Below are positions 17,498-41,454 of a stretch of DNA of 64,000 nt, one piece after another. How positions within the stretch are numbered: the first letter of the stretch is position 1; every line of letters starts with the position of its first letter. Origin of the DNA: an uncultured Actinomycetota bacterium (GTDB lineage Bacteria > Actinomycetota > UBA4738 > HRBIN12); contig CAVXMB010000002.1 of the NCBI GenBank assembly GCA_963762745.1, forward strand, positions 104,554-168,553. The letters are read 5' to 3'. A program made the position numbers and the translations under genes. A model generated the notes under the pieces. The model was not told the DNA's origin. It did not search any database and saw nothing but the letters and a program-made list of their open reading frames with translations.

Positions 17498-18889
17498 TCA
17501 GCGCCAGCACCAGCCCTCCGGTGCGAGGGTCCCAGGTGGTGCACGACAGTCATCGAACCACTGTCGTGCTTCCAACGCCTCCCGAGAGAGGGGCGCGGCG
17601 GTCAAGACGGGGTAGAAGAAGACGAAGAAGGTGAACGCCAGCACGCCGAGGAGCGTCAAGGCCGCACGGCCCGTGAACGACCGCACCCACGGCGTCGCCA
17701 CGATCGCGACGGCGAGGCACATGAACGGCACTGCCGGCAGCAGGTAGAACAGGAACGTGAAGGAACGCCCGGTGCTCATTGCGAGCCAGGGCAGGTACAT
17801 CACGGCGAACCCGCCGACCGCCACGACCGCGGCATCCGTCGGCTTCCGCCTACGGGCCATCCGTATCGCGAGATACGCGAGGGCGATGAGAGCGGCCCAC
17901 CACACCACGGGGCTGCCGATGGCGAGGATCTCTCGATACGTGCCCCCGGAAGCGTCGGAGAAGTACACGACCGGGCGCTTGATCAAAGGCCAAGACCAAG
18001 CGGGTGACGAATACGGACTCACGTCCTGGATCCCGAGATGGAACCGCAACATCTCTCGCTGCACGCCGAGGAAGTTCCTCGCCCACGACCCGTGCGCCCA
18101 CGGCAACGACAAGACAGAGCCTTCGATCCTTCCGACGAACGAGGCGATGTAGACGACCAGCGGAACCACGATCATCGAGAGGGCGAGGGGAAGACCTTCA
18201 CCCCGCGCCACACCTCGGATCCTTGCCCACGAACCGCTCGTGGTCACTCGGCCGGCGGCCCAGAGGGCAGCGATCCCGGCGACGCCGACCAGAGCCAGGA
18301 ACCCCACCCATTTGGTGGCCGTCGCCGCACCCGCGACGGACCCGGCCGCAAGCAGCCATCGACGGACGACGAGCGGTCGTTCAGCACCGGCTGACTCGAC
18401 GAGATCCCGGTCGATCACCAGGAACAGGAAGCTCGCCACGACGAACAAGGTGACGAAGATGTCGAGCATCGCGACGCGGGATTGCACGAAGTGCAGCGGG
18501 TCGATCGCGAGGAGGCCAGCTGCCACGCCTGCACCGATCGCGGTGCCGAGTAGCCTGCGCCCGAGCAGATACAGGAGCGACACGGTGAGGATCCCGGCGA
18601 TCAACGCCGCGATCCTCCACCCCAGCGGGCTGTAGCCGAACACGCGGATCCCCAGGCTGATCAGCCATTTCCCGAGAGGGGGATGGGGACTGATCGCACG
18701 TTCTCCGATGCCGCAGATCTGCTGCGATCCCTGGACGAGGAAGCACGCCTCCCTGGCGTAGAAGAACTCGTCGAACACGATCGTGTTCGGCCGAGTGAGA
18801 TGGATGCTCCGCGATACGGTCGCGATCGCCGTCACGAGCGTGACCGTGACGGTATCCGCCCTCGTCCAGCGGAGTCGCTCCGACGTCAC
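17498..18889 (-). CDS. Dolichyl/polyprenyl-phosphate-mannose protein mannosyltransferase-like (PMT/GT39, GT-C fold)
   Basis: Polytopic membrane protein with the early loop motif VFDEFFYAREA (the DE motif of PMT-type enzymes). About 463 aa. Confidence 0.75.
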   Translation of the reverse strand: MTSERLRWTRADTVTVTLVTAIATVSRSIHLTRPNTIVFDEFFYAREACFLVQGSQQICGIGERAISPHPPLGKWLISLGIRVFGYSPLGWRIAALIAGILTVSLLYLLGRRLLGTAIGAGVAAGLLAIDPLHFVQSRVAMLDIFVTLFVVASFLFLVIDRDLVESAGAERPLVVRRWLLAAGSVAGAATATKWVGFLALVGVAGIAALWAAGRVTTSGSWARIRGVARGEGLPLALSMIVVPLVVYIASFVGRIEGSVLSLPWAHGSWARNFLGVQREMLRFHLGIQDVSPYSSPAWSWPLIKRPVVYFSDASGGTYREILAIGSPVVWWAALIALAYLAIRMARRRKPTDAAVVAVGGFAVMYLPWLAMSTGRSFTFLFYLLPAVPFMCLAVAIVATPWVRSFTGRAALTLLGVLAFTFFVFFYPVLTAAPLSREALEARQWFDDCRAPPGTLAPEGWCWR

Positions 18890-20259: not shown

Positions 20260-20456
20260 GGACGAACCGAGGAGCTCATCCTGATGCAGTCGATAAGCTG
20301 TCCTCAACTTCCGCGATCCCTTCCATCAGGAACGAGACTCGAGTGGACCCGAAACCCGCCAGCGATGAAACACGCACGGCCATCGACTCGGTAGGTGCGC
20401 AACCTCAGTCTGACGTCGGGACCTGTTTCGGGTACGCGGTGCGTGCGCCGTTCCCC

Positions 20457-21305
20457 ATGATGGCGATGCGATCCGGCGGCGGAGTTCCACTCGATGTGCT
20501 CGAAGCGGGGGATCCGCCCGAGAACATCGGGGAGCCGCTTCTTCAGTGGGTCGAGGGTGACAGGTCGATCGTGCGGCTGTACCAGGAGGCGACCGAGTAC
20601 CTCATGTGGGTCGATGGAGACGATTGGTTCCGCATCAACCCGGATGCCCCGTCCATCACGTGCATCGGCAGCGTCGGGGGTCCCCGCCGTGAGGCGAGGA
20701 TCTTCGGTCTTCCGGCCGCCCTGTGCTTCATGGCCCGCGGCCATGTGGCCGTGCACGCGGCAGCCGTGGACGTCGACGGTTCCGCACTGCTCCTCGCCGC
20801 TCCCGGGAGGTTCGGGAAGACGACGTTGGCGGCGGCGTTCGCCGGCCTCGGGTATCGGCTTCTCGCCGAGGACACCACGTGCTATCGCCCTGCCCCCGAC
20901 CCCGCGGTGCTGCCGGGCTTGGCCATGCTGCGGATCCGTCCCGACGTGTACGAACACGTCAGTCTCCCCGGCACCACGGTGGCGGCGGTCGACCCGGAAC
21001 GCGTCTTCGTCGTCCTCGATGAGCGGGGGCGGGGGGACAGCGAACCGGTACCTCTCCGGGGCGTGGTGTTCCTCCGCGTGTGGGATCAAGACGAGATCGT
21101 GCTCGAGCGGGTCGCGGCGGATCGGGTGATCTCGGATCTCTGGACGCTGACCTTCAATCTGCCGAACGACCGCTCACGGACGGAATGCTTCCAGGCGGTC
21201 GTCGGTCTGGCGACGGCGGTGCCGATCTGGAACCTCCACCGTCGTCTGTCCTTCGAACAGCTCCCCACCGTGATCGATCGGATCGTGTCGACGTGTCTCG
21301 CGTGA
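20457..21305 (+). CDS. HPr-kinase-related serine kinase (HprK C-terminal-domain-like), lasso-peptide-associated type
   Basis: VHAAAVDVDGSALLLAAPGRFGKTTLAAAFAGLGYRLLAEDTT matches the HprK-like P-loop core. The stop overlaps the B2 gene start (TGATG at 21303-21307). The portion of ORF 19677-21305 upstream of 20457 overlaps the previous gene and is discounted. Confidence 0.75.
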   Translation: MMAMRSGGGVPLDVLEAGDPPENIGEPLLQWVEGDRSIVRLYQEATEYLMWVDGDDWFRINPDAPSITCIGSVGGPRREARIFGLPAALCFMARGHVAVHAAAVDVDGSALLLAAPGRFGKTTLAAAFAGLGYRLLAEDTTCYRPAPDPAVLPGLAMLRIRPDVYEHVSLPGTTVAAVDPERVFVVLDERGRGDSEPVPLRGVVFLRVWDQDEIVLERVAADRVISDLWTLTFNLPNDRSRTECFQAVVGLATAVPIWNLHRRLSFEQLPTVIDRIVSTCLA

Positions 21306-21715
21306 TGCGTCCGGCGCCACCTCATCTGGGGCTTCCCGCCAGTGGGCGGTTGTTCGTTCGCATCTGGATCACCTTCGTTCGAGTGCGGTGGACGACGACT
21401 CGCCATCCGCTCCCGGCTGCGGTCGCCCGCTTGGGCGTGCCCGGCCCGGCCCCCCGCTACCGCCTGGAACCCCGCAGGCTCGGCGGCATCGTCGCCCGGG
21501 TATTGAGGTTCGGTCCGTGGCGGGCGAGATGTTTGTGGACGGCTCTCGTCCTGTATGTCCTGTTGCGCGACCAGCGCGATGCTGCCGACCTGGTGATCGG
21601 CCTTCCCTTGGAACCGAAGGACACCATCGCCCACGCGTGGGTAGAGATCGACGGGAAGGACGTCGGCCCGCCACCGGGACAGGGGCGGCACGAGGAGCTC
21701 GCCAGGTACTCCTGA
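21305..21715 (+). CDS. Lasso peptide biosynthesis B2 protein (transglutaminase-like leader peptidase)
   Basis: RCLWTALVLYVLLRDQ...DLVIGL...AHAWVEIDGKDVG gives the Cys...His...Asp arrangement and the HAWVE signature of McjB-C-terminal/B2 proteins. Confidence 0.8.
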   Translation: MRPAPPHLGLPASGRLFVRIWITFVRVRWTTTRHPLPAAVARLGVPGPAPRYRLEPRRLGGIVARVLRFGPWRARCLWTALVLYVLLRDQRDAADLVIGLPLEPKDTIAHAWVEIDGKDVGPPPGQGRHEELARYS

Positions 21716-21737: not shown

Positions 21738-23516
21738 TCACCACCTGGAGAGGAAGGCGTGAACGGATGCGAGATCCTTGGCCCATCCGTACTCCGCGAG
21801 GTCGAGGTTCTCGGCCTCAAGGCTCTCGTGGAGGAGGTCGTATCGGACACCGCTCAGCCGATGCTGCGGGTCCATGAGCCAGCGCCGAAGCTCCGGATAG
21901 TCGATACCGGCCCGCACGGAGTCGTCGAAGTACGTCTTGTCCCGCCGATCCAGGATCGCATCGGGGACTCGCCCGCGCAGCAGCCCTCGGACGAGTGTCT
22001 TCCCTCTGACGTCGGGGAACTTGACCTCCGCCGGCAGGCTCAGGAAGAACTCCCACAGGTCGACGTCTCCCCACGGACGTCTGCACGCGATGTCGCAGAG
22101 CTGCTGACAGGTGTCGTCGGCTTCCGTCGTGAGGCCGACGCCTGAGAAGGGGCTGAGCTGTACCTTCGCCCATCGATCCCGGGCCGGCACGATGCTCCTC
22201 ACCGCGGCCTCGTTCACGCGGGCGACATCGAGCCACGCTGGAACGTTCGTCCGCAACCGTGCCCACTTGTAGGCCGTGACGCGGGTAGGAACGAAAGGGT
22301 TGGCCAGGCTCTTCAGCGATGCCGTCAATGAGCCTCCCCGCGCGCGGCGATCCCCCAGCAGACGCGCGACCGCCCCCCACCGTCCGTGCCAGACGAGGTG
22401 AGGGATCAAGTACGTGGAGATGTCGAAGACGAATTCCGCCAACTCCCCGCTCAGCACGGTGCGGTAGCCGAGGCCCCGCACGTGCCGGTAATGCTCTTCG
22501 TACTGGGGCAGCGAGATCGTGGGCACGGGTCCATCCGCGAGTCGAGTCCACTCGGCGAGGCGATCCATGGGCCGGGCGTGCTGCTGGTAGAGATCAAGGG
22601 GCATCTGGAGTTGGTCCGCGACCAGGCGGGTGTACGTCGACTCGTCGACGGCCGGGTGATCGGGGTAGATGACCGATACGCCTCCCAGAGGACGGCCCTC
22701 GATCTCCAGGTGTCGAGATGCCCCGTACGCGGCGATCGCAGGGGAGTCCACGCCCCCGCTCAGCGACACGGCGTCCCGTCCGGTGAGGGTTCTCGCGACC
22801 GCCTGGGTCATCAGATGATCGAAGCGCTCCTTGATCTCCTCCGGCCCATAGCGCCCGGTTTCGAATCGATCGGTCGGATCCCAGTACCGCCTCAGCCGGG
22901 CGGCGCCCGAACGGTCCGCCACCAGGAGGGAGGCCTTCGGGAGTCGCTCTACGCCTCGGAGCGCGCTGGGGGTGTGCTCGTCGTACGTCCGGAAGTAGAT
23001 CGCCTCACAGACGTCCAGGTCCGGCTCTTCGGCGATGCCGGCGCCCGCGACGACTTGCTTCGCCTCAGAGGCGACGTAGACCGCGCGAGCGTCTCGACGG
23101 TAGAAGACAGGGCCGAACCCCAGATGATCCCGGAACGCCATGATGCGGTCCCGGTCGCTGATGACACCCGCGAAGACGCCGCGGAGCCGGGCGGGGAGAT
23201 CGAGCCCGAAGGCTCGGTATCCTGCGACCAGAACGTCGGCTACATCCCCGGACGACGATGGATGGCCCGCCTGCTCCGCCGCTCGCGCCAATCCCGCCAC
23301 GTTGTCGATGGTTCCCGCCAGTGCCACAGCGACCTCTGCATCAACGCCCAGATGAGCGTCATCGCGGCCCTCTGACGTCCCCACCGCGAGCGCGACGGCG
23401 CCATGCTGGACGAGCTTGGTCCGTCCACCTCGATGGGGCGCAGCCCGGATCATGTCCTCGACGACGGTCTCGTCGGGAACACCGGTGTGGAACAGGGCTA
23501 CGGAGATCGATCCCAT
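21738..23516 (-). CDS. Lasso peptide cyclase (asparagine synthetase B homolog)
   Basis: SLSGGVDSPAIAAY PP-loop. The N-terminal domain starts MGSIS, so the Cys nucleophile of true glutamine-dependent AsnB is absent. Convergent with B2 and immediately downstream of the small precursor ORF. Confidence 0.85.
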   Translation of the reverse strand: MGSISVALFHTGVPDETVVEDMIRAAPHRGGRTKLVQHGAVALAVGTSEGRDDAHLGVDAEVAVALAGTIDNVAGLARAAEQAGHPSSSGDVADVLVAGYRAFGLDLPARLRGVFAGVISDRDRIMAFRDHLGFGPVFYRRDARAVYVASEAKQVVAGAGIAEEPDLDVCEAIYFRTYDEHTPSALRGVERLPKASLLVADRSGAARLRRYWDPTDRFETGRYGPEEIKERFDHLMTQAVARTLTGRDAVSLSGGVDSPAIAAYGASRHLEIEGRPLGGVSVIYPDHPAVDESTYTRLVADQLQMPLDLYQQHARPMDRLAEWTRLADGPVPTISLPQYEEHYRHVRGLGYRTVLSGELAEFVFDISTYLIPHLVWHGRWGAVARLLGDRRARGGSLTASLKSLANPFVPTRVTAYKWARLRTNVPAWLDVARVNEAAVRSIVPARDRWAKVQLSPFSGVGLTTEADDTCQQLCDIACRRPWGDVDLWEFFLSLPAEVKFPDVRGKTLVRGLLRGRVPDAILDRRDKTYFDDSVRAGIDYPELRRWLMDPQHRLSGVRYDLLHESLEAENLDLAEYGWAKDLASVHAFLSRW

Positions 23517-23601
23517 GGGTGGCGTCGCAGTCTAGAAGAGCCACCTCCTGCGAAAGCGGGTTCGGCTCGGTGGCCTCCTCGCCCCCCTGGCAAGAAGGGG
23601 C

Positions 23602-23639
23602 AAGAAAAAGATCGACCGCACCTCTCGGTGCGGTCGATC
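23602..23639 (-). terminator. Intrinsic terminator/attenuator hairpin between the precursor gene and the cyclase gene
   Basis: On the minus strand there is a perfect 13-bp stem, gatcgaccgcacc-gaga-ggtgcggtcgatc, followed by tttttcttg. It starts 27 nt after the precursor stop. Confidence 0.7.
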
Positions 23640-23665
23640 GGTGGTTCGGATCGTGTTCTGAAGAG

Positions 23666-23812
23666 CTACGGAGTCGCTGCCAGCGCCGACTGCTCGCCGA
23701 AGTTATCCAGGTGGCAGCCCGTGAGGCAACCCTTCGTCTGACCGTGTGGCGTCGTGAACGTGTGGTCGGCGATCGACCCCAGGTCCATGACGACCGGCGT
23801 TTCGTACACCAT
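23666..23812 (-). CDS. Candidate lasso peptide precursor (48 aa): MVYETPVVMDLGSIADHTFTTPHGQTKGCLTGCHLDNFGEQSALAATP
   Basis: AGGAGG lies 5-6 nt upstream of the ATG at 23812. 41 of 48 codons end in G/C, as in the surrounding genes. The leader fits Y-x-x-P-x-(L/V)-x3-G-x5-T. Directly upstream of the cyclase on the same strand. Confidence 0.65.
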   Translation of the reverse strand: MVYETPVVMDLGSIADHTFTTPHGQTKGCLTGCHLDNFGEQSALAATP

Positions 23813-23990
23813 GTCGCCTCCTCTTCCCCTTGGGATCCCATTTGTCGGGGGGTCCCCCATCATAGGGACATCGCGTCTGCAATGCCCTACTACCTTTGGC
23901 GTATCTTTGCTAGTGATACACCCCTACCCAGCATCCCCCATCCTGACGGGGGGTTCCTGCTTGGCCTACTTCTTCGGCCGTATCTTTCCC

Positions 23991-25304
23991 ATGATACGCA
24001 GAGGCAAACCCCGAGGGATGGGCCGGGAGCCCACAGGTCGCTATCCTCTCCCGGTGGCGCATTGGCGCGTGCCCCCCACGATTGGTGCCCGGCTTCCTCA
24101 TGTGGAAGGGGCTCGAGCGCTCGCAGCCAGCAGCATCGTCGTTTTCCACGTGTGGAAGTACGGCTCTTCCAGCGGGCCGGCCAGCCTCGGTCCGACCGGA
24201 CGTCTTCTGCCCCACCTGGCATTGGGGGTGACGCTTTTCTTCGCACTCTCCGGTTTCCTGCTCTACCGGCCTTTCGCGGCCGCCCTGATGCGCGGGACTC
24301 CTCGTCCGGATCTGGCCGCCTACTTCCGGAACCGAGCTCTTCGGATCCTGCCCGCCTACTGGGTGATCCTCTTGGTCACCGGCGTGGTGATGGGAGCCAC
24401 GCTCGTCAGCTACGACCTCCAACGCGGATCGCTCGCCACCCGACCAGGTCTCTTGGTGCGGGATGCCCTCCTCGTGCAGAACTACGCCCCAGGAACGATC
24501 CTCACCGGGATCGGACCGGCATGGTCACTCGCCATCGAGGTGGTGTTCTATCTCGTGCTTCCGCTCTTGGGCTTGATCGCGTTCGCGCTCGCTCGACGGG
24601 CCTCGAACGACTCGCGACGTCGGAGGCTCGCATCGCTCCCACCGATCCTGGTGCTCCTGATCGGGGTCTCGGGGAAGCTGGTTGCCACGTATCTCGTACC
24701 TGGATGGGGCCCGGGATTCGGATGGGTCAACGACTGGCACTCCGTGCTCGAGCGCAGCTTCTGGGCACAGGCCGACCTGTTCGCGTACGGGATGCTCCTG
24801 GCGGTCGTGTCCATCGCGGTCGAGGACGGACGTATCCAGCTGCCGCGTGGATGGTGGCCCGTGACCGCCTCGGCGTTCGTCGGCCTCGCTGCCGCGACGG
24901 CGGTCGGCTTCGACGAGGGAGCGATCAACCAGTACGTCTACGACTCGTTGATGGCCCTCGCATGCGCCCTGTTCCTCGCTCTCGTCGTGCTCGCGGGGCG
25001 CGACGGCGAGCGGCGACCCTTCCTTCTGAGCTGGCTCGAGGCCCGGCCGATCGTCTGGGTGGGGGTGGTTTCCTACAGCCTCTTCCTTTGGCACGAGCCG
25101 ATCATCTGGTGGCTTCGGGACCGGGGCTTGCTGGTCGCGGGAAATGCCGCCGGAGACTTCCTGTTGAACCTCGCCATCGTGGGGACGGTTTCGCTGGCGC
25201 TGTCTGCTCTCACCTATCGGGTCGTGGAATTGCCCGCCCTCCGACGGAAGGCACGGACCCCGACACGAGACGAGGCGGTGGCGGTCGTCGCGGCGGCGCC
25301 CTGA
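23991..25304 (+). CDS. Acyltransferase family 3 (membrane O-acyltransferase)
   Basis: RLPHVEGARALAASSIVVFHV... N-terminus followed by about 10 hydrophobic segments, typical of the PF01757-type. The start is chosen at ATG 23991 because upstream ORF residues overlap the precursor gene. Confidence 0.8.
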   Translation: MIRRGKPRGMGREPTGRYPLPVAHWRVPPTIGARLPHVEGARALAASSIVVFHVWKYGSSSGPASLGPTGRLLPHLALGVTLFFALSGFLLYRPFAAALMRGTPRPDLAAYFRNRALRILPAYWVILLVTGVVMGATLVSYDLQRGSLATRPGLLVRDALLVQNYAPGTILTGIGPAWSLAIEVVFYLVLPLLGLIAFALARRASNDSRRRRLASLPPILVLLIGVSGKLVATYLVPGWGPGFGWVNDWHSVLERSFWAQADLFAYGMLLAVVSIAVEDGRIQLPRGWWPVTASAFVGLAAATAVGFDEGAINQYVYDSLMALACALFLALVVLAGRDGERRPFLLSWLEARPIVWVGVVSYSLFLWHEPIIWWLRDRGLLVAGNAAGDFLLNLAIVGTVSLALSALTYRVVELPALRRKARTPTRDEAVAVVAAAP

Positions 25305-25320
25305 GGCGACCGTTCGTTGG

Positions 25321-26490
25321 TCAGAAGAACCAGAGCCACCGGGTGAAGGTGATGACGCCGAGGGTGGCGAGCGGCGCGAAGACCGCCAACACGAGGTCGT
25401 GAGCGCGATCCCGCTCCTTCGTGAACGAGGCGATGAGCAGGACGATCGGGAACAACGAGAGGAGCGCACGAGGAACGCTGAAGTAGTGGGTGCTCACCAG
25501 GAGCGTGGCGAGCGTCGAACCCATGAAGGCGGCATATCCCCACAGACGCCTGGAGATGGCCCAGGCGGTGAACGCGATACCGACCGCGGCGGCAGCGATC
25601 TCCCCGGCATACGCGATCCTGAAATTCGCATCGAGTGACGGATCTCCGACGAACCGGAGCGTGGTGAGGAGCGCGGAGATCGGGCCTTTGAACTCCCGAA
25701 GCCAGCCCACGCGCTCGTCGGTGAGGAATGCGAAGGGATCGCCCCTGATGACCCAGAGGTAGGTGAGGTATGCCAGGAGCGGGAGCACCGCGAGAGACAA
25801 GGCCGCACCGGCTCTCACCAGGGATCTTCGTGAGAAGTCGCGTTGGGCGACGAACTCGACGACGAGACCGATCAGGAGGAACACTCCCGCCGGCCGGGCC
25901 GCCACGGCAACGAACGCCGCCGGGCCGACGGCGAGCCATCGACGTTGGCGAGCGTAGAAGAAGGCCGGGATGGCTCCGGCGAGGAAGAGCGGCTCACTGT
26001 ACGGTGCGATCAGGAACACCGCCGTGGGGAACAGGAGGAGGTACAGCACGGCCTTGCGACCGGCGCCCTCTCCGACCTCGGTCTCGGCGAGCTGGTACAG
26101 GAATCTGGTCGCCACCAGGGTGGCTGCCGCCGAGATCGTCAGACCCGCCGCGATCGGGGACAGGCCGATCCCGGACAACCCCCGCACCAGCACGGGCAGG
26201 AGAGGCCAGAACGCGGTGACGTAGCCGACGGTGCCGGGACCCCGGTATCCGTGCTCGGAGATCGCGAGGTAGTGAACCGCGTCCCACCGGTGCCAGATGG
26301 CAAGAGATCCCTCGCGGGGCATGTCCATCGAGGAAGCGAAGATCCATGTCGCGGCGTACGCGACGACCATGAAGACGATCCGAGTGACCACGACGAGGGT
26401 CGCCGCTTCCGCCCACGCAGGGTTCAACTCACGGAACCATCGTGCCCCGGATGCGATGGGCCGCCACGTCATGGGGGCCAAGCATCTCAT
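25321..26490 (-). CDS. PIG-V/Mannosyl_trans2-like GT-C membrane mannosyltransferase
   Basis: Polytopic membrane protein with HRWDAVHYLAISEHGY in the first loop (the WD..YL.IA..GY signature). Confidence 0.7.
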   Translation of the reverse strand: MRCLAPMTWRPIASGARWFRELNPAWAEAATLVVVTRIVFMVVAYAATWIFASSMDMPREGSLAIWHRWDAVHYLAISEHGYRGPGTVGYVTAFWPLLPVLVRGLSGIGLSPIAAGLTISAAATLVATRFLYQLAETEVGEGAGRKAVLYLLLFPTAVFLIAPYSEPLFLAGAIPAFFYARQRRWLAVGPAAFVAVAARPAGVFLLIGLVVEFVAQRDFSRRSLVRAGAALSLAVLPLLAYLTYLWVIRGDPFAFLTDERVGWLREFKGPISALLTTLRFVGDPSLDANFRIAYAGEIAAAAVGIAFTAWAISRRLWGYAAFMGSTLATLLVSTHYFSVPRALLSLFPIVLLIASFTKERDRAHDLVLAVFAPLATLGVITFTRWLWFF

Positions 26491-26574: not shown

Positions 26575-27303
26575 ATGGTTGACACGGCGAAGCTCGGGAA
26601 GTGGATCAAGCCCCAACATCTGACCGAAGAGAACCTCGCCCGATATCGTGCTTCGTTCGCCGGCCACCCCGCTCAGCTGGTCGTGGTCGAGGACTTCTTG
26701 CTCGACGACGTCGCCGAGCGGATCAGCAGGTTCCTCGAAGGCGAGGCGCTCTTCGAGGAAGAGCACGGGCTGTACTCGATCGATGGAGCAGTGCCGCAGG
26801 CGGACTGGGAGTCCGCCGAGGACGACGACCGGCTCTTCCGTCTCTCCCGGCTGAAGGGGATCTCTCCCGAACACATGATGAGCCCGAACGCGGTCACCTA
26901 TCTCCGCCTGCGTCAAGCGTTGCAGCAGCCGGAGTTCAGGGAGCTCTTCGAAGCCCTCACCGGATTGGAGCTGGGGTCGAGCGACGACTTCGGGGTGCAC
27001 TCGATGAGCGTGGGAGATTTCCTTCGTCCGCACTCCGATGACGTTCGGGACCGCAGCATCGCCCTCGTGATGTACCTCTCGCCCGGTTGGAGCCCGTCCT
27101 TCGGTGGAGCCCTCCACATGGCCGACGAGACGGGAGGCGACACTCGGGTCGAGGCCACGTACAACAGCATCGTGGTCTTCGACGTCCAGGCGGAGAACTC
27201 TCACCTGGTCGCGCCCATCGAAGCCGCGGCCGGAGAGACCCGCAGGCTCACGATCGGAGGCTGGTACCCGAAGCCGACGGGTGCCGATAGCGCCGCGTCG
27301 TAA
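26575..27303 (+). CDS. 2OG-Fe(II) oxygenase (prolyl-4-hydroxylase-like)
   Basis: GGAG RBS at 26567-26570. FLRPHSDD (HxD) plus downstream SHLV and RLTIGGWY (distal His / Arg region). The upstream part of the 486-aa ORF is antisense shadow. Confidence 0.8.
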   Translation: MVDTAKLGKWIKPQHLTEENLARYRASFAGHPAQLVVVEDFLLDDVAERISRFLEGEALFEEEHGLYSIDGAVPQADWESAEDDDRLFRLSRLKGISPEHMMSPNAVTYLRLRQALQQPEFRELFEALTGLELGSSDDFGVHSMSVGDFLRPHSDDVRDRSIALVMYLSPGWSPSFGGALHMADETGGDTRVEATYNSIVVFDVQAENSHLVAPIEAAAGETRRLTIGGWYPKPTGADSAAS

Positions 27304-30403: not shown

Positions 30404-30697
30404 TCAAGATGGGGCCGGCTCGGTGAGGATCAGGTCGCGCTCGGCGAGATCGGCCAGGAACTGCCGGATCTCCTCCTCGAAGTCGGGAGGCACATCCTGG
30501 AGCTGTGCTCTCAGCTCATGAAGGAGCACATCGACAGGCTTCTGCTCCTCCAGCAGGCTCCAGATCAAGACTCCGACTTCGTTCAGCCCGTGGTACGCGG
30601 CGGTGTCAAGGTGGAGGAGGACACCTCCTTCACCTTCCCCCATGCTCCTGGATTCGACACGGGGGTTCCTCCGGAGAAGGGTCGTCGTATCGATCAT
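30404..30697 (-). CDS. PqqD-family protein (stand-alone RiPP recognition element; candidate lasso B1)
   Basis: 97 aa. GGVLLHLDTAAYHGLNEVGVLIWSLLEEQKPVDVLLHELRAQL...EEEIRQFLADLAERDLI is a typical PqqD/RRE winged-helix pattern. GAAGGAAAGG RBS upstream of ATG 30697. Confidence 0.8.
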   Translation of the reverse strand: MIDTTTLLRRNPRVESRSMGEGEGGVLLHLDTAAYHGLNEVGVLIWSLLEEQKPVDVLLHELRAQLQDVPPDFEEEIRQFLADLAERDLILTEPAPS

Positions 30698-30782: not shown

Positions 30783-31331
30783 TCAGGGGAGCGGCTCTGC
30801 GTGACCTTGCCGACGCACCCGCTGACTTGCCTGCCAGACGAGCCAAGCAACAGCGAGCAGGACGAGGCCCGACAACAACCAGAGCGTTGCGTCCGAGCCG
30901 CCGAGGTCGAGACCTTCGCCCGGGGATGGCCGTCCGGACGACAGGACCACCGCTGCGAGGGCGCCCAGGCCGACGTTCCTGGCCAACATCAGCCGATAGT
31001 CGAAGATCCGACTCCCACCGAAGCATCCACACCCGAGCTTGTTCGTCCCGAGCACGATCCGGGTCCGGACGATCGCGACACAGAACACCGCGAGCAGTCC
31101 GATCGCCATCACGGCGCCCGATCTCTCAGCTCCCGTGATCAGAAGGCCGGCGATCCCCAACTCGATCCACGGAAGCACCAAGAAGACCGCCACTCGGACG
31201 GGACGACTCAGTCGGTATGAGACGAGATCCATCCGCCAACGTTCAGCTCGGATGACCTTCATCGATCCCGCCCATGCGAACGCCCCGGCAAGGAGGATCG
31301 ATGCGAGCGTCACCCAGCCATCTGACATCAA
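30783..31331 (-). CDS. MauE/DoxX-family redox-associated membrane protein
   Basis: Four hydrophobic segments and the conserved CGCFG motif (NKLGCGCFGGS). Confidence 0.8.
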   Translation of the reverse strand: MMSDGWVTLASILLAGAFAWAGSMKVIRAERWRMDLVSYRLSRPVRVAVFLVLPWIELGIAGLLITGAERSGAVMAIGLLAVFCVAIVRTRIVLGTNKLGCGCFGGSRIFDYRLMLARNVGLGALAAVVLSSGRPSPGEGLDLGGSDATLWLLSGLVLLAVAWLVWQASQRVRRQGHAEPLP

Positions 31332-35821: not shown

Positions 35822-37939
35822 CTACGGGATGGAAATGGTCCCGTCGTTGCCGGCGTAAGTTACTGCGGTGTTCTCCGAACACACGCTCGAGCTTCCGAGC
35901 TGTGCCGGGGTGTTCGAGGTGTAGGTCACCCTCCAATACACCGTCGTATCGGTGGTGATCCGCACCGTCGTGTTGTTCGTCGTTGCGGACTGAGGCGCCA
36001 CACCGCTGATGGAGATCGGGCCTTGGCTGTACAGCAGGCCGGTTGCTCCATTTGCCGTGCAGTTCGCCAATGTGTCGTACAGCTTGAACGACACATTTCC
36101 GGAGAGCGTAAGGCCCGCCGGGGTAGTGGTGATGGTCGCCTTATCCTGCGGGAAGACGAACTGCCGTGTCGCGATCGACGTCGGCGCCTGGTTGACCACC
36201 ACGCGTTCGTTCGTGTCGAGGCAGTCGGTGTTGTGGGTGTCTCCGAGCGTGTTGGGCAAGTCGCCCGTGTAGGAGGCGACCCAGTGGTACGTGCCCGGAG
36301 CGTCCGGCGTGAACGACACCGGACCGTAGGAGCCGTTACCGGTCACGTTGACGCTCTGCGGGTTCGTGCCCGTTCCCGTCGCCAGGGTCGTGCAGTCCGC
36401 CTTGAAGAGGGTGAACGTGATGGATCCGGTTGCGTCCCCTCCCAGCGTTGTCGGGTTGATCGACCCATTGGTGCTTCCCGCCGGGCCACCCGTGCCGGGC
36501 TTGTGAGCCGTGTTCGTGAGTGTCGCCGTGTCCGTGACCGGCTGACCGAGGTCAACAGGCGTGGTCCCAGCCTGGGTCGCGAGGACCGATTGCCGTGGGT
36601 TCACGGTGAAGCACTCGCTGGCCCTGCTGTCGTCTGAGCCGGGCACGCCAACGGTCGCATCACCCGAGAAGACGGCTCGCCAGCAGTACCTACCTGCTTG
36701 CGTGACCGTCGCCGCAGAGGACGTGTACGTACCATCTGCGGTGATGTTCTGGGTTTGCACCGGCACGCCGCCCGTGGTGCACAGCGTCGATGAACCTGCT
36801 GCGAATGGGCCACAGAGGTTGAACGACAGCGTCGCCGTGAAGGTATCGGCGCCACCCACATCCACGACCGCCCGGTCCTTGACCAGGATCGCGGCGTCCG
36901 CAGGGTCGGCTGGGATGTCGAGCCCGCCGGCCGGGATTGCGACTCCGGCGTTATCGACCGGTGTCGTCGTTGTCGTGGAGGTGCATCCACCGATCGATCC
37001 GCGCGAGAAGTCGAAGATCGTCGCGGTGAGCGACGTCGACGAACGCGTGTCCCCGATGAAGACGTTGAAGCACTTCCCTCCCAGACCGGAGTCCGTCAGG
37101 TTGATGCCGCCCTCGAAGAACTCGGACACGCGCAGAGAATGCCCGACGCCATCCTGCTTGTTCGCAGTCAGCCACGGGATGTCGTTGAGCGTGCCACTGT
37201 TGACCTGCGCGCAGATGTCGTCGTCACCCGATGATGTCGAGCAAGCGGCTCCATCGGCGATCGAGTCCGGGTTCAACGTGCCGTTGGGGCCGCCCTCCCA
37301 GGCGTAGGCGTTGATGGTGGACACGCTCCCGCCCTGTGTGAACTCCGAGACGACGAGCACGTCACCGTTGGCGTGAGCTCCGGTGAACGCGGTCGACCCG
37401 CCACCAGACTCGCAGTTCACGGTGCCGTCCTGGAGGAACCAGAAGCCGACGTTGCCGGTTCCTGTGTTCGCGTTGCGCTCCAGAGCGAAGTACATGATCT
37501 CGTCGTTGGTAGCGGGATCGACGTACGACGCGGCGTACGCGTTCATCACATCGCTCTTGCTGAGGACGTTGTTGTCGGTGTTGCACTGCCAACCGGGTGT
37601 GATCGGCAGCGTGTCCTTGCTACCGGTGGCGAACGTCGTCGAGTCGCTCGTGCTGAAGGACCCGTTCGTGTTGGTGTTGAAGTCCCTATCGAAGCCCGAC
37701 GCATCGAAACCGGCGGGTCGGGGCGAGATCAAGGCCCCCGCTGAGTTGATGAAGTTCGCCCAGTCGAAGTCCTGCGTCGAAGCTGCATCGTCGCGGGTAT
37801 TGCCGTCGAGCTGGAACTCGAGATCGTGCACCGCGAACGCCGGCACCGCCATCAACATGACCAGTGCCGTACACGCTGCGAGCGCGGTACCGATGCGAAG
37901 CCGGCGGCCCCGCGTCAGTGAACTGAAGATACGTACCAT
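35822..37939 (-). CDS. Large secreted protein (705 aa) with Thr/Gly/Ser-rich, probably Ig-like/beta-sandwich repeats; function unknown
   Basis: AAGGAGG RBS. Signal peptide ...LMAVPAFA|VHD. Cys pairs and repeated ...T.T.T...G.Y.W.A.Y.GD... segments. No LPXTG motif seen. Confidence 0.7.
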   Translation of the reverse strand: MVRIFSSLTRGRRLRIGTALAACTALVMLMAVPAFAVHDLEFQLDGNTRDDAASTQDFDWANFINSAGALISPRPAGFDASGFDRDFNTNTNGSFSTSDSTTFATGSKDTLPITPGWQCNTDNNVLSKSDVMNAYAASYVDPATNDEIMYFALERNANTGTGNVGFWFLQDGTVNCESGGGSTAFTGAHANGDVLVVSEFTQGGSVSTINAYAWEGGPNGTLNPDSIADGAACSTSSGDDDICAQVNSGTLNDIPWLTANKQDGVGHSLRVSEFFEGGINLTDSGLGGKCFNVFIGDTRSSTSLTATIFDFSRGSIGGCTSTTTTTPVDNAGVAIPAGGLDIPADPADAAILVKDRAVVDVGGADTFTATLSFNLCGPFAAGSSTLCTTGGVPVQTQNITADGTYTSSAATVTQAGRYCWRAVFSGDATVGVPGSDDSRASECFTVNPRQSVLATQAGTTPVDLGQPVTDTATLTNTAHKPGTGGPAGSTNGSINPTTLGGDATGSITFTLFKADCTTLATGTGTNPQSVNVTGNGSYGPVSFTPDAPGTYHWVASYTGDLPNTLGDTHNTDCLDTNERVVVNQAPTSIATRQFVFPQDKATITTTPAGLTLSGNVSFKLYDTLANCTANGATGLLYSQGPISISGVAPQSATTNNTTVRITTDTTVYWRVTYTSNTPAQLGSSSVCSENTAVTYAGNDGTISIP

Positions 37940-38190
37940 TCGAGATTGCCTCCTTGGTTGGAGTTGCCTGCTGGTGCCGCTGCTTGTCCGAGTGCCGTTC
38001 GGCGCACCTCCGGCGGACTAGCTCGGATCTCTCAGAACCGGGGGAGTCCTCCTTTCGGATCGTGAGCGGGCGGCAGCCGCTCCGTCGTGCGTCGGGTCGA
38101 ACGAGGAGGAGGAACCTGCCGAACGTCGATCGGGCACGGTTACCCAGACGGGTCGTCCCACGGTCCTTCCACCCCACTTCGCGGGAATAC

Positions 38191-38481: not shown

Positions 38482-39525
38482 TCATGCAGTGGAGAACAAG
38501 CGTTCCGCGATCTGGATCCCGTTCAACGCGGCGCCTTTCCGGAGATTGTCCCCGCACGCGAAGAGAAGCAGTGAGTCGTCGTGGCCCGGTGCCTGCCGGA
38601 TGCGTCCGACCAGCACCTCGTCACGGCCCGCGGCCTCCAACGGTGACGGGTACACACCCCTGGCCGGATCATCGCGCACCTCGACCCCCGGAGCCTCCAG
38701 GAGCAGGTCGCGCGCTTCCTGAGGCGTGATCGCACGCGAGAAGCGAGCCAGCAGCGACACGGAATGGCCCACCGGCACGGGGACGCGGACGCAGGTCGCC
38801 GCCACATCGAGATCGGCGATGCCGAGGATCTTCCTCGATTCCTCGATCGTCTTGGCCTCTTCGCGGGTGGAGCCGTCGTCGTCGAACGCGTCGATCTTCG
38901 GGAGCACGTTGAACGCCATGGTCTTTCCGAACACGTCGCCGGTCGGGAGCGCGTCGAGATCCGGATGGCCGAGCTCCTCGACCTGGTCGTGGAGCTTCCC
39001 GATCTGTTCGGCGAGCTCCCGCGTTCCGTCGCGCCCCGCGCCGGACACCGCCTGATAGGAGGAGAGCACCAGCGATCGAAGTCCGGCTGCGCGATGGAGC
39101 GGCGCGAGGGCCATCATCGCGACGATCGTCGTGCAGTTGGGCACCGCGATGATCCGTGGTGACCCGTCCAGCGCTTCCGGGTTGACCTCGGGGACGACGA
39201 GCGGCACATCCGGCTCCATACGGAACGCGGATGACTTGTCGATACACACGACCCCCGTGGCCGCAGCCTCCCGCACGAACCCGCGAGCGACCGACGCGCC
39301 GGCGGCCGAGAGGGAGAGATCTGCTCCTCGGAGCGCGTCGAGGGACAGCTCCCGCACGGTGACGTCATGGCCCGCGAACGAGATCGTCCGTCCGGCGGAT
39401 CGCGCCGACGACATCGGCACGAGCTCATCGACCGGGAACGCGCGGGACTCGAGGATGCGCAGCATCTCGGTCCCCACCGCGCCGGTGGCGCCCACGACGG
39501 CGACCTTCAATCCCATGGGAGTCAC
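38482..39525 (-). CDS. asd: Aspartate-semialdehyde dehydrogenase
   Basis: VAVVGATGAVG Rossmann motif, IAVPNCTT active-site Cys region, SYQAVSGAG. About 347 aa. Confidence 0.95.
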   Translation of the reverse strand: MTPMGLKVAVVGATGAVGTEMLRILESRAFPVDELVPMSSARSAGRTISFAGHDVTVRELSLDALRGADLSLSAAGASVARGFVREAAATGVVCIDKSSAFRMEPDVPLVVPEVNPEALDGSPRIIAVPNCTTIVAMMALAPLHRAAGLRSLVLSSYQAVSGAGRDGTRELAEQIGKLHDQVEELGHPDLDALPTGDVFGKTMAFNVLPKIDAFDDDGSTREEAKTIEESRKILGIADLDVAATCVRVPVPVGHSVSLLARFSRAITPQEARDLLLEAPGVEVRDDPARGVYPSPLEAAGRDEVLVGRIRQAPGHDDSLLLFACGDNLRKGAALNGIQIAERLFSTA

Positions 39526-39558
39526 CCTACCCGGCAGACCACGTCCGGCAGTCGAGGG

Positions 39559-40176
39559 TTAGCGGAACGTCCAGGTCCCGAGGATGTCTTCGAACTCCTC
39601 GGCACGAAGGTCGAACCCCTCGGAATCGGCTTGGAGCTGTACACGCCACGCCGAGTCGCCCCGGACGAACACGATCTCCCGCACCTGCTGCTCGACCTGC
39701 CCCGCGTCGAGGACGAAGTCCCACTGGGCGGCGGCGACGCCCGCCACGCGCCGGTCGACGACCTCGCCGACCTCCATCCCGTTCTCCGTCGCAACGTCTC
39801 GCGCCGCCTGCACGACCTCGTCAAGCCCCTGTCCGGTCTGCAGCTGGATCGCCATGATCCGCACGGTCGACGCATCGGCCGGCTTGATGAGCTCGTCGTA
39901 CGGCAGGCTCGACTCCGCGGCATCGTTCGTGAACTGCCAACCGGGGGCCGCGACGCAGTAGCCGAACCGAGGCGACTCCACGGTGCTGGCGTCGCACACG
40001 CCCGGTCCGCCGAGCCACCAGAAGCCGGCTGCGACCACGCCGGCGAGCGCGATGAGGAGCCCCGCGACGATCGCGACCGCCTTGCCCGCGGAACGGGTCG
40101 GTGCGGGCGGAGCGGCCTCCTCGACGTCGACGTCGCGACCCGGAGGCGGGGGCGGAAGGGAAGGGTACGGATCCAT
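39559..40176 (-). CDS. Membrane-anchored hypothetical protein (Pro-rich N-terminus, single TM)
   Basis: MDPYPSLPPPPPGRD... then the AVAIVAGLLIALAGVVAAGFWWL TM. Coding-like codon bias. Sits between lysC and asd. Confidence 0.6.
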   Translation of the reverse strand: MDPYPSLPPPPPGRDVDVEEAAPPAPTRSAGKAVAIVAGLLIALAGVVAAGFWWLGGPGVCDASTVESPRFGYCVAAPGWQFTNDAAESSLPYDELIKPADASTVRIMAIQLQTGQGLDEVVQAARDVATENGMEVGEVVDRRVAGVAAAQWDFVLDAGQVEQQVREIVFVRGDSAWRVQLQADSEGFDLRAEEFEDILGTWTFR

Positions 40177-40181
40177 ACCCT

Positions 40182-41420: not shown

Positions 41421-41454
41421 GCCGAGCCGAGCGTAGCGGCTCGGATGGGCCGGG

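Follow-up and report, generated by a model that had tools for sequence, protein, structure and literature searches.

Lasso peptides are defined by one reaction, in which the new N-terminus is joined to Asp or Glu at position 7-9. Among the described systems, those closest to the locus studied here are the phosphorylated (and glycosylated) lasso peptides of the paeninodin and pseudomycoidin type, found in Bacillota and some Proteobacteria. These combine a split B1/B2, an Asn-synthetase-like C, an HprK-like kinase and a PsmN-like nucleotidyltransferase with a [Y/W]xxPx[L/V] leader carrying T(-2) and a C-terminal Ser/Thr, and some of their clusters lie inside capsular polysaccharide loci (PMC8498205, PMC6993621, PMC13381572). 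The BsfA system of Bradymonas sediminis has the A, B1, B2, C, K and N gene set, with YxxPxL at -17..-12, a B1 that assists both the kinase and B2, and a kinase that targets an internal residue; its core is a standard Gly1-Asp8 ring directly after the leader, and its -2 residue is Ile (PMC10368454). The linear polyphosphorylated peptides (LPP; Popov et al. 2026), on the other hand, use an RRE, an HprK-like kinase and an NTP-transferase on a YxxP leader in polysaccharide loci, with a SipW-like signal peptidase as leader peptidase and no cyclase. Disulfide-containing lasso peptides of classes I, III and IV (e.g. siamycin, BI-32169, LP2006) combine cysteine pairs with a macrolactam, their Cys positions linking the ring region to the tail region, but have Cys/Gly1 to Asp8/9 rings at the N-terminus, and none has both cysteines inside the ring or an N-terminal extension. 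Finally, graspetides and microviridins carry ω-amide Lys-Asp/Glu macrolactams, which are made by ATP-grasp ligases.

We examined a 48-residue open reading frame in a 64 kb stretch of an uncultured Actinomycetota genome (contig CAVXMB010000002.1, positions 104,554 to 168,553; referred to as the window), which had been singled out from sequence alone as an unusual lasso precursor. The observation itself is confirmed. The initial annotation did not state a strand; translation of the minus strand gives exactly MVYETPVVMDLGSIADHTFTTPHGQTKGCLTGCHLDNFGEQSALAATP*, while the plus strand gives a stop-free but unrelated read of the same bases, so the gene is on the minus strand. The strong ribosome-binding site and the 41 of 48 G/C-ending codons cited in support of coding were both recovered, and a hairpin with a U-tract follows the stop codon, for which 0 of 200 shuffled sequences fold as well. 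As described, Y3, P6, V8, G12 and T18 fit Y-x2-P-x-L-x3-G-x5-T, there is no Asp or Glu at positions 7-9 after T20, G28 to D36 is a 9-residue spacing, and C29 and C33 lie between them. The peptide is the only match to the full leader motif in all six frames of the window. Comparison with related loci (denoted by L numbers) shows that the gene differs from its L006 orthologue by 7 synonymous and 0 non-synonymous codons, the counts being 10 and 6 for L005 and 15 and 6 for L043. Although high-G+C genomes contain many spurious ORFs, a chance ORF or non-coding region is thus effectively refuted by these signals together with the homologues and conserved synteny described below. The features of the locus are collected in the table.

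Features of the precursor locus in the window (positions count from the first letter of the window)
Coordinates	Strand	Feature	Basis
23666..23812	-	Precursor peptide gene (A), 48 aa plus stop; leader is residues 1-19 (…GSIADHTF), proposed core is residues 20-48 (TTPHGQTKGCLTGCHLDNFGEQSALAATP)	Translation, codon usage, homologues, synonymous changes exceeding non-synonymous, unique leader motif in the window
23818..23824	-	Ribosome-binding site GAGGAGG, 5 nt upstream of the ATG	Sequence
23600..23639	-	Terminator or attenuator-like hairpin between A and C: 13-bp G+C-rich stem, 4-nt loop, U-tract (hairpin at 23639..23610)	dG -31.1 kcal/mol, z = -3.78
21738..23516	-	C: Asn-synthetase-like, lasso-cyclase-like enzyme, 592 aa; SGGVDS PP-loop; Cys2 replaced by Gly, so no glutaminase nucleophile	Asn_synthase 2.3e-25, GATase_7; lasso cyclase models 115 bits (cut-off 525) and 62 bits (cut-off 300); M-G/A-… N-termini in 16 homologues
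21302..21715	+	B2: transglutaminase-fold leader peptidase, 137 aa, convergent with C	Transglut_core3 2.1e-17; NF033537 lasso_biosyn_B2 50.6 bits (cut-off 33)
20415..21305	+	K: HprK-related peptide kinase, about 296 aa; start codon uncertain (20415, 20457 or 20460)	TIGR04352 HprK_rel_A 1.7e-11 (P-loop region only, below cut-off); 34-97% identical homologues in related loci
30404..30697	-	B1: PqqD-family RiPP recognition element, 97 aa	PqqD 1.3e-13; lasso PqqD models below cut-off; best PDB match TbiB1 5v1u (8.4e-10), then PbaB1 9x90
30783..31331	-	MauE-family membrane protein, directly upstream of B1; candidate disulfide-forming helper for C29-C33	MauE 6.9e-17; same Wzz-MauE-PqqD order in L001, L002 and L006; also present in L035
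28359..29372	-	N: PsmN-like uncharacterised nucleotidyltransferase	NTP_transf_5 (PF14907) 4e-26; recurs in related loci
26575..27303	+	2OG-Fe(II) oxygenase, candidate tailoring enzyme; pathway membership inferred only	Domain search; homologues next to the cluster in L001, L002, L004, L006, L043, L009 and L031
31404..33200	-	Wzz-type chain-length determinant fused to a BY-kinase, upstream of MauE and B1; context from the exopolysaccharide locus	Domain search

The absence of a conserved small ORF in homologous loci had been named in advance as grounds for rejecting the gene, and the searches gave the opposite result. We found 18 close homologues, 486 profile hits (clusters at 90% identity, E ≤ 10) and 271 clusters at 50% identity (E ≤ 0.001), and in every locus long enough to judge the precursor gene is followed directly by a C homologue (38-95% identity), with K, B2 and B1 nearby. 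In the window, these genes are interleaved with an exopolysaccharide locus that includes glycosyltransferase and Wzy/Wzz genes. B1 at first appeared to be missing, since none lies next to A, C, K or B2, but it was found 7 kb away beside MauE and Wzz. The window cluster has no ABC exporter, although related loci have an ABC-2 pair. No S26 peptidase appeared among the ORFs scanned between 7.6 and 41.5 kb, where not every small ORF was included, and no ATP-grasp domain appeared among the scanned neighbours in the window or in related loci; the leader peptidase of LPP and the ligase of graspetides are thus both lacking in the regions scanned, and the adjacent cyclase is a further difference from LPP. 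The B2 and B1 features expected of a lasso system are present, as are the HprK-like kinase and NTP_transf_5 genes of the paeninodin-like systems, while for C the assignment is less firm: the domains, PP-loop and lack of Cys2, which the C homologues all lack as well, fit a macrolactam synthetase, but the lasso cyclase models score far below their cut-offs and the generic AsnB model scores higher, so that the evidence leaves this assignment open. The kinase has no PDB relative detectable by sequence.

The leader is nearly invariant. In 267 distinct sequences, T18 is present in 267, P6 in 266 and G12 in 266, and if the peptide is cut after F19 the leader falls in exact canonical register, with Y-17, P-14, V-12, G-8 and T-2; the YxxPxL motif is reported to span these positions in lasso leaders (PMC10368454). 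The NCBIfam leader model L3 nevertheless scores only 13.7 bits, below its cut-off of 19, and the family motif YExPxΦxD[FL]GSIADHTF differs from the YxxPxVLxHQxIxFET of LPP. From T20, the first acidic residue is at position 17, and the Asp/Glu at position 7-9 required of a lasso core is therefore absent unless cleavage is moved to K27|G28.

The initial annotation preferred this latter site, proposing that TTPHGQTK is an 8-residue leader insertion and that Gly1 and Asp9 form a canonical ring, and it asked which of T18, T26, G28 and D36 are conserved among precursors of homologous cyclases. The ambiguity of the cleavage site that it pointed out is real, but the alignments support this interpretation only in part. 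D36 is essentially invariant (249/250 aligned sequences), G28 is conserved in the window's subfamily and is G or S in most of the family, and K27 is conserved family-wide, but T26 is not conserved (T 78, D 42, V 35, P 24 ... of 257). E40 is present in 242/250 and S42 in 239/248. All 237 cores that carry the D-x-Φ-x-E-x-S motif have a Lys 5-13 residues before the Asp (8-10 residues in 212), and it is never Arg, while the same Lys lies 4-47 residues from the leader; this assignment of the Lys is heuristic. C is present where the module is present, including a core with a short linker (P0255), and absent in the two module-less clusters found. The suggestion that C-terminal Thr/Ser could serve the kinase agrees with a family feature, as S/T is the last residue in 136/239 sequences and occupies one of the last two in 206/239; the window peptide, however, ends in A-T-P rather than in the Ser expected of a paeninodin-like phospho-acceptor, which leaves its site of phosphorylation undecided.

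Cysteine content bears on whether the segment between F19 and K27 is discarded. Cys counts are even in 256/260 cores. 'x-R-C' immediately after HTF co-occurs with 'E-C-S' in 23/26 cases, against 4/234 otherwise (Fisher 9e-26), an example of such a homologue being TRCGGSGPPKDFRPFGLDKFGECSEGHGLS. Of 48 cores scored as having Cys before the Lys, about 4 are mis-splits at an extra ring Lys, and of the remaining ~44 about 41 have one Cys before the Lys and an odd number after it. These parity and covariation statistics are not corrected for shared ancestry. Furthermore, cyclase-less clusters (L046/L047, L049), which follow the logic of LPP, have the same leader and a B2 (fused to N), but no Lys in the core, and no second protease that could trim the linker is conserved in the neighbourhoods. 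Lys as a P1 determinant for B2 is weakened by these Lys-less substrates, and also by cores in which the conserved ring unit D-W-x2-C-x2-D is preceded by PPK, K-V-G, KKK-G or K-Q-G. A haem or metal role for C-x3-C-H was considered and set aside, since this motif is confined to the window's subfamily and other subfamilies place their Cys pairs elsewhere, making a disulfide the simpler reading.

We propose that the ORF encodes a RiPP precursor matured by a split-B lasso-type enzyme set of a B1 chaperone, a B2 cysteine protease and the Asn-synthetase-like C, together with the kinase and the nucleotidyltransferase. The gene, its homologues, its neighbours and the conservation patterns are observed directly, whereas every step of the pathway that follows is inferred from sequence comparison, there being no experimental data for any family member. 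In this view, B1 binds Y3-x-x-P6-x-V8 and B2 cuts at the canonical site T18-F19|T20, so that the Thr/Pro/Gly-rich stretch TTPHGQT stays in the product. C would then act on the module K27-x8-D36-x3-E40-x-S42, adenylating the D36 side chain, which is captured by K27 Nε to give a side-chain-to-side-chain macrolactam instead of the N-terminal lasso ring; this is the kind of cross-link found in graspetides, an analogy of product and not of family. C29 and C33 would form a disulfide after export with help from MauE, the kinase would phosphorylate a Ser/Thr (T47 near the C-terminus, or the invariant S42), and N may add sugar to the phosphate, kinase and nucleotidyltransferase having precedents (PMC8498205, PMC6993621, PMC10368454, PMC13381572). 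The system is probably functionally coupled to the exopolysaccharide locus in which it is embedded. That this is a real precursor is all but certain and that lasso-type machinery acts on it is very likely; cleavage at F19|T20 with retention of the segment is probable, while a link specifically between Lys27 and Asp36 is tentative, and the model as a whole, though preferred to each alternative, falls short of even odds. No lasso-cyclase homologue is known to use a Lys ε-amine, and literature searches found nothing either way. Invariant K and D give no covariation signal, and an AlphaFold2 model of the precursor from a 107-sequence alignment (pLDDT 76.5, pTM 0.36), which was not examined at atom level, showed only short β-bridges, a Foldseek search against the PDB giving nothing (best E = 2.8).

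The strongest competitor, although unlikely, is the insertion model, in which a 27-residue leader is cut at K27|G28 to release the 21-residue paeninodin-like lasso peptide GCLTGCHLDNFGEQSALAATP. The K→D distance is 8 or 9 in 189/237 cores and the residue after the Lys is S (84), G (80) or A (3) in 167/237, the usual lasso position-1 residues and exactly what a canonical lasso starting after the Lys would show. Position -2 would be T, V or I in about half of the sequences, Ile/Val(-2) being documented in phosphorylated lasso peptides (PMC10368454), the product size, ring size and C-terminal Ser/Thr resemble paeninodin (PMC8498205), and the segment is Pro/Gly-rich and variable in length, as a spacer would be. 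However, this model would leave about 41 divergent homologues with an odd, unpaired number of Cys and a conserved Cys in a discarded segment, and would place YxxPxL at -25..-20. It also has to accommodate a K→D distance of 5, 6, 10, 11 or 13 in 42/237 cores, a non-canonical residue after the Lys (D, P, V, N, Q or another) in about 30%, the activity of homologous B2 with the same leader on Lys-less cores, and the lack of any family member with the ring directly after HTF. A C2-C6 disulfide across a 9-residue ring would, by inference, leave sub-rings too small for a threaded tail; threading itself was not measured here. The family data instead favour the fallback offered in the initial annotation, that the ring chemistry is non-canonical.

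Two further possibilities accept other bonds. In one, which we consider quite unlikely, cleavage at F19|T20 is followed by joining of the T20 α-amine to D36 (or E40), giving a very large (17-21 residue) head-to-side-chain lariat that disulfides may lock. This uses the known chemistry of lasso cyclases, and the linker Cys of x-R-C types sits at a fixed distance (3 residues) from the new N-terminus and pairs with the Cys next to E40, which fits an N-terminus anchored near the D/E motif. On the other hand, ring size would range from about 11 to more than 50 residues across the family, residue 20 is hypervariable (Q, T, D, A, N, M …, and including Trp and Pro), unlike a lasso position 1, and the invariant Lys and its fixed spacing from Asp would have no role. 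It is likewise unlikely that C makes no Lys-Asp ring but instead a D36-S42 (or E40) ester, a conjugate of D36/E40 to an external amine such as an amino sugar of the neighbouring polysaccharide pathway, or that Lys27 adds to dehydroalanine made from phospho-S42. S42 and E40 are as conserved as K27, the RiPP genes are interleaved with polysaccharide genes, with B1 directly downstream of Wzz and MauE on the same strand, and paeninodin-like clusters in polysaccharide loci are reported to be co-expressed with EPS genes (PMC13381572). Yet no lyase or other partner enzyme was recognised, the cyclase-less relatives keep the kinase but lack E-x-S, so that the kinase is not tied to S42, and the fixed K-D spacing suggests an intramolecular pair.

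We found no Pfam or NCBIfam model and no paper on this family, literature searches on its leader sequence, on lasso peptides with exopolysaccharide, on Lys-isopeptide lasso cyclases and on the 'HPr-rel-A' or SynChlorMet names having returned nothing on it. The family differs from the paeninodin type in its invariant K…D-x-Φ-x-E-x-S module, in the lack of Asp or Glu 7-9 residues after the canonical cleavage site, in paired cysteines that span the supposed leader/core boundary and in its hosts, which are uncultured Actinomycetota. It is possible, though less likely than not, that a lasso-cyclase homologue has been re-purposed to join a Lys ε-amine to an Asp side chain inside a core that keeps an N-terminal extension, and the product would then be a two-tailed, disulfide-stapled macrolactam peptide, a new RiPP topology made by a widespread family. 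Here a large family uses the lasso enzyme set with a leader in perfect canonical register, yet its core cannot undergo the defining reaction unless the cleavage site is displaced, and cysteine pairing argues against displacement. Either outcome is informative: B2 may cleave far from its recognition motif, which would change the rules used to predict lasso cores by genome mining, or the cyclase may make a different bond, which would be new enzymology and a new scaffold. The family is abundant in soil metagenomes and repeatedly sits inside polysaccharide loci, which extends to Actinomycetota a link between phosphorylated RiPPs and capsule or EPS synthesis that was reported in 2026 for Bacilli.

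The peptide flagged in the initial annotation is real, and its coordinates are right. The gene lies on the minus strand, the reverse complement translating to MVYETPVVMDLGSIADHTFTTPHGQTKGCLTGCHLDNFGEQSALAATP*, while the plus strand gives an unrelated read. A GAGGAGG sequence lies 5 nt before the ATG, and 41 of the 48 codons end in G or C. A 13-bp hairpin followed by a U-tract (−31 kcal/mol; z = −3.8) lies 27 nt after the stop codon, between this gene and the next one, a common arrangement for RiPP precursors. The full lasso-leader pattern [YWF]xxPx[LVIFA]x3Gx5Tx occurs only once in all six frames of the 64 kb window, and that is here. Against the orthologue in a 95%-related MAG (L006), the gene shows 7 synonymous and 0 non-synonymous codon differences; for two other related loci, L005 and L043, the counts are 10 and 6, and 15 and 6, respectively. 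The ORF is real and under purifying selection.

As the genome is 67% G+C, third-position G+C was used to select the coding frames in the surroundings. Directly downstream, on the same strand, is a 592-aa Asn-synthetase-like protein (C; Asn_synthase 2.3e-25, GATase_7), which has an SGGVDS PP-loop and in which Gly replaces the glutaminase Cys2. Convergent with it are an HprK-related kinase (K) and a B2 leader peptidase, the latter scoring 50.6 bits on NF033537, above the cut-off of 33. The B1/PqqD chaperone, on the other hand, is not adjacent but lies just downstream of a MauE-family gene and a Wzz/BY-kinase gene, all on the same strand, an order also seen in the related loci L001, L002 and L006. 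The best solved relative of B1 is the lasso RRE TbiB1 (8.4e-10), followed by PbaB1 and LppB. A PsmN-like nucleotidyltransferase (N) is also present. Between and around these genes lie other polysaccharide genes, namely three GT2 genes, an Acyl_transf_3 gene, a 2OG-Fe(II) oxygenase, three GT-C enzymes (PMT, GT87 and a PIG-V-like protein), Wzy_C, Bac_transf, WecG and two GT1 genes. The RiPP genes (K, B2, C, precursor, N, B1 and MauE) are therefore interleaved with a complete-looking Wzy-type exopolysaccharide locus. A 714-aa plus-strand ORF that runs across the precursor gene and the acyltransferase gene is a high-G+C artefact, the real plus-strand gene being the Acyl_transf_3 protein in another frame. 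Further along, ORFs of 731 aa and 208 aa have coding-like codon bias but no Pfam match, and the 208-aa ORF sits between the asd and aspartokinase genes.

Coordinates of the features in the window and in related loci (L handles)
Feature	Location	Coordinates	Strand or orientation
Precursor peptide	window	23666-23812	minus
Hairpin with U-tract	window	23639..23610	
C, Asn-synthetase-like	window	23516→21738	minus
K, HprK-related kinase	window	about 20415-21305	convergent with C
B2 leader peptidase	window	21302-21715	convergent with C
B1/PqqD chaperone	window	30697→30404	same strand as MauE and Wzz/BY-kinase
MauE family	window	31331→30783	same strand as B1 and Wzz/BY-kinase
Wzz/BY-kinase	window	33200→31404	same strand as B1 and MauE
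N, PsmN-like nucleotidyltransferase	window	29372→28359	
Exopolysaccharide locus with interleaved RiPP genes	window	7600-33200 (about 7.6-33.2 kb)	
Acyl_transf_3	window	start at about 23991	plus
714-aa ORF (artefact)	window	23258-25402	plus
2OG-Fe(II) oxygenase	window	26575-27303	plus
2OG-Fe(II) oxygenase	L009	4-222	
2OG-Fe(II) oxygenase	L031	4677-5399	
PMT family	window	17498-18889	minus
PMT family	L018	6021-6869	
PMT family	L028	1266-2621	
731-aa ORF	window	35822-38017	minus
asd	window	38482-39558	
208-aa ORF	window	39559-40185	minus
Aspartokinase	window	40182-41546	
Cyclase-less cluster	L046/L047	1368-1505	
Cyclase-less cluster	L049	4112-4264	
Two cyclase paralogues	L030	10-1503 and 1494-3008	tail to tail

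A sequence search with the peptide found 18 homologues, and a DNA-pattern scan of metagenomes for D-[LF]-G-S-I-A-D-H-T-F found 39 contigs and 37 distinct precursors. A profile search found 486 clusters at 90% identity, while an exhaustive HMMER search found 271 clusters at 50% identity with E ≤ 0.001. The latter also returned a large repeat protein of 687 aa (P0232), which matches the leader profile six times through the repeat …NEPVANLG[AS]IADQTFTR…; this is probably a chance resemblance within a repeated domain, and it has no RiPP context that we checked. The sequences are metagenomic, and two named genomes carry the locus, both Actinomycetota MAGs. The absence of a conserved small ORF from homologous loci had been set out in advance as grounds for rejecting the peptide; instead, in every related contig that is long enough, the precursor is followed at once by a C homologue (38-95% identical), and K, B2 and B1 lie within a few kb. 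One contig (L030) carries two cyclase paralogues, about 42-44% identical to the C of the window. Many loci also carry an ABC-2 exporter pair, NTP_transf_5 (sometimes fused to a methyltransferase) and polysaccharide genes. No Pfam or NCBIfam model for the peptide was found, nor any paper containing the leader sequence.

Profile alignment of 267 distinct sequences shows how the family is built. After residue 20 comes a Thr/Pro/Gly-rich stretch of variable length, followed by a Lys. Every one of the 237 cores with the D-x-Φ-x-E-x-S motif has a Lys 5-13 residues before the Asp, and it is never Arg; the distance is 8 in 50 cores, 9 in 139 and 10 in 23, although our assignment of the Lys and Asp positions is heuristic. 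The same Lys lies anywhere from 4 to 47 residues after the leader and therefore belongs to the C-terminal module, not to the leader. Ser or Thr is the last residue in 136/239 sequences and lies within the last two residues in 206/239.

Conservation by window position in the profile alignment of the precursor family
Position	Conservation
Y3	253/267
P6	266/267
V8 (I/V/L)	266/267
D10	244/267
G12	266/267
S13	247/267
I14	260/267
H17	246/267
T18	267/267
F19	254/267
Residue 20	hypervariable (Q 71, T 68, D 30, A 19, N 13, M 10 …)
D36	249/250
F38	F/Y/H/W in 238/250
E40	242/250 (7 are Asp)
S42	239/248

The interpretation offered in the initial annotation, that the leader is cut at K27|G28, is only partly supported. 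This site yields a textbook product of 21 residues with a Gly1-Asp9 ring, and across the family the residue after the Lys is S (84), G (80) or A (3), and the ring would have 8 or 9 residues in 189/237 cores. However, when conservation at the two candidate Thr residues was compared, as had been suggested beforehand as a means of choosing between them, T18 proved invariant whereas T26 is not conserved. The ring would also have 5, 6, 10, 11 or 13 residues in 42/237 cores, and in some lineages the conserved ring unit is separated from the Lys by one or two residues, for example PPK|D-W…, K-V-G-D-W… and K-Q-G-D-[WF]…. The strongest argument against this site is cysteine parity. Cys counts are even in 256 of 260 complete cores (97 have none, 139 have two). 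About 44 cores carry Cys in the stretch before the Lys, after removal of four cores mis-split at an extra ring Lys, and in about 41 of them it is a single Cys matched by an odd number after the Lys. In the largest such group, ‘x-R-C’ right after HTF co-occurs with ‘E-C-S’ in 23/26 cases, against 4/234 otherwise (Fisher 9e-26), although these statistics are not corrected for phylogeny, while other lineages pair a linker Cys with ‘D-C-F’ or ‘Q-C-D’. A discarded leader segment has no reason to keep a Cys that balances the core.

Furthermore, the same leader, GSIADHT[FY], occurs in clusters without a cyclase. One (L046/L047) has N, the precursor, PqqD and K, and its core, THGGVRALQNFPLNLFAGLGLGSAPS, has no Lys, Asp or Glu; another (L049) has an N-B2 fusion, PqqD, the precursor and K, and its core has no Lys. 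A homologous B2 therefore serves this leader without any Lys. These clusters look like an actinobacterial counterpart of the linear polyphosphorylated peptides described in Bacilli, but with B2 in place of a signal peptidase. No second protease is conserved near the clusters. If the cut is after F19, the leader reads Y-17, P-14, V-12, G-8, T-2, and YxxPxL is reported to span −17 to −12 in lasso leaders (PMC10368454). We conclude that cleavage at F19|T20, with TTPHGQT retained, is the better-supported reading and is likely, while cleavage at K27|G28 is unlikely by comparison with canonical cleavage followed by non-canonical cross-linking.

From T20, the first acidic residue is at position 17, and the class-defining ring to position 7-9 is thus impossible. 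C always accompanies the K…D…E-x-S module, including a core with only a three-residue linker, IGGKFLAGTVDNGVENS…, which is followed by a 47%-identical C, and it is absent from the two module-less clusters found. All C homologues lack the glutaminase Cys, so the amine does not come from glutamine. Of the available amines, the α-amine of residue 20 is poorly conserved in context and would give rings of about 11 to more than 50 residues. The Lys, on the other hand, is invariant, is never Arg (even in a high-G+C genome that favours Arg codons) and lies at a nearly fixed distance from the invariant Asp. The most economical mechanism is adenylation of D36 and capture by K27 Nε. All of our evidence is comparative and this mechanism is an inference only; an ester to S42, a link through E40, or conjugation to an external amine are not excluded. 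An AlphaFold2 model of the precursor (pLDDT 76.5, pTM 0.36), which was not examined at atom level, shows only short β-bridges, and a Foldseek search found no analogue.

In terms of other steps, C29 and C33 are the only cysteines and are conserved in the subfamily, and MauE, which we found only in the loci of this subfamily, fits disulfide formation outside the cytoplasm. HprK-like kinases of lasso clusters phosphorylate the C-terminal Ser of the precursor (paeninodin), and PsmN adds hexose to that phosphate (PMC8498205, PMC6993621), while other members target an internal Ser3 with help from B1 (PMC10368454, PMC13381572). In the window peptide, the candidate targets are T47 (…A-T-P) and S42. 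The cyclase-less relatives keep the kinase and a C-terminal …APS or …SSE but lack E-x-S, which points to the C-terminus. The 2OG-Fe(II) oxygenase (Ofd1/prolyl-hydroxylase-like) recurs beside clusters of several precursor subfamilies, which suggests a hydroxylation step on the peptide, and a PMT-family protein O-mannosyltransferase lies directly beside the precursor gene in two divergent loci (L018 and L028), and in the window's locus. The retained Thr-Pro-rich segment could be an O-glycosylation site. The roles of both enzymes are unknown.

The gene set is that of the paeninodin/pseudomycoidin/Bsf-type phosphorylated lasso peptides, and the embedding of such clusters in capsular polysaccharide loci, together with a sister cyclase-less family (LPP), was reported in Bacilli in 2026 (PMC13381572). 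What differs is the core, with no acidic residue at 7-9, an invariant K/D/E-x-S module, and cysteine pairs that cross the supposed boundary. The defining lasso feature, residue 1 joined to Asp/Glu 7-9, is not found at the canonical site. We thus regard this system as one that works with lasso machinery, not as a demonstrated lasso peptide, and it is possible, although less likely than not, that it represents new ring chemistry.
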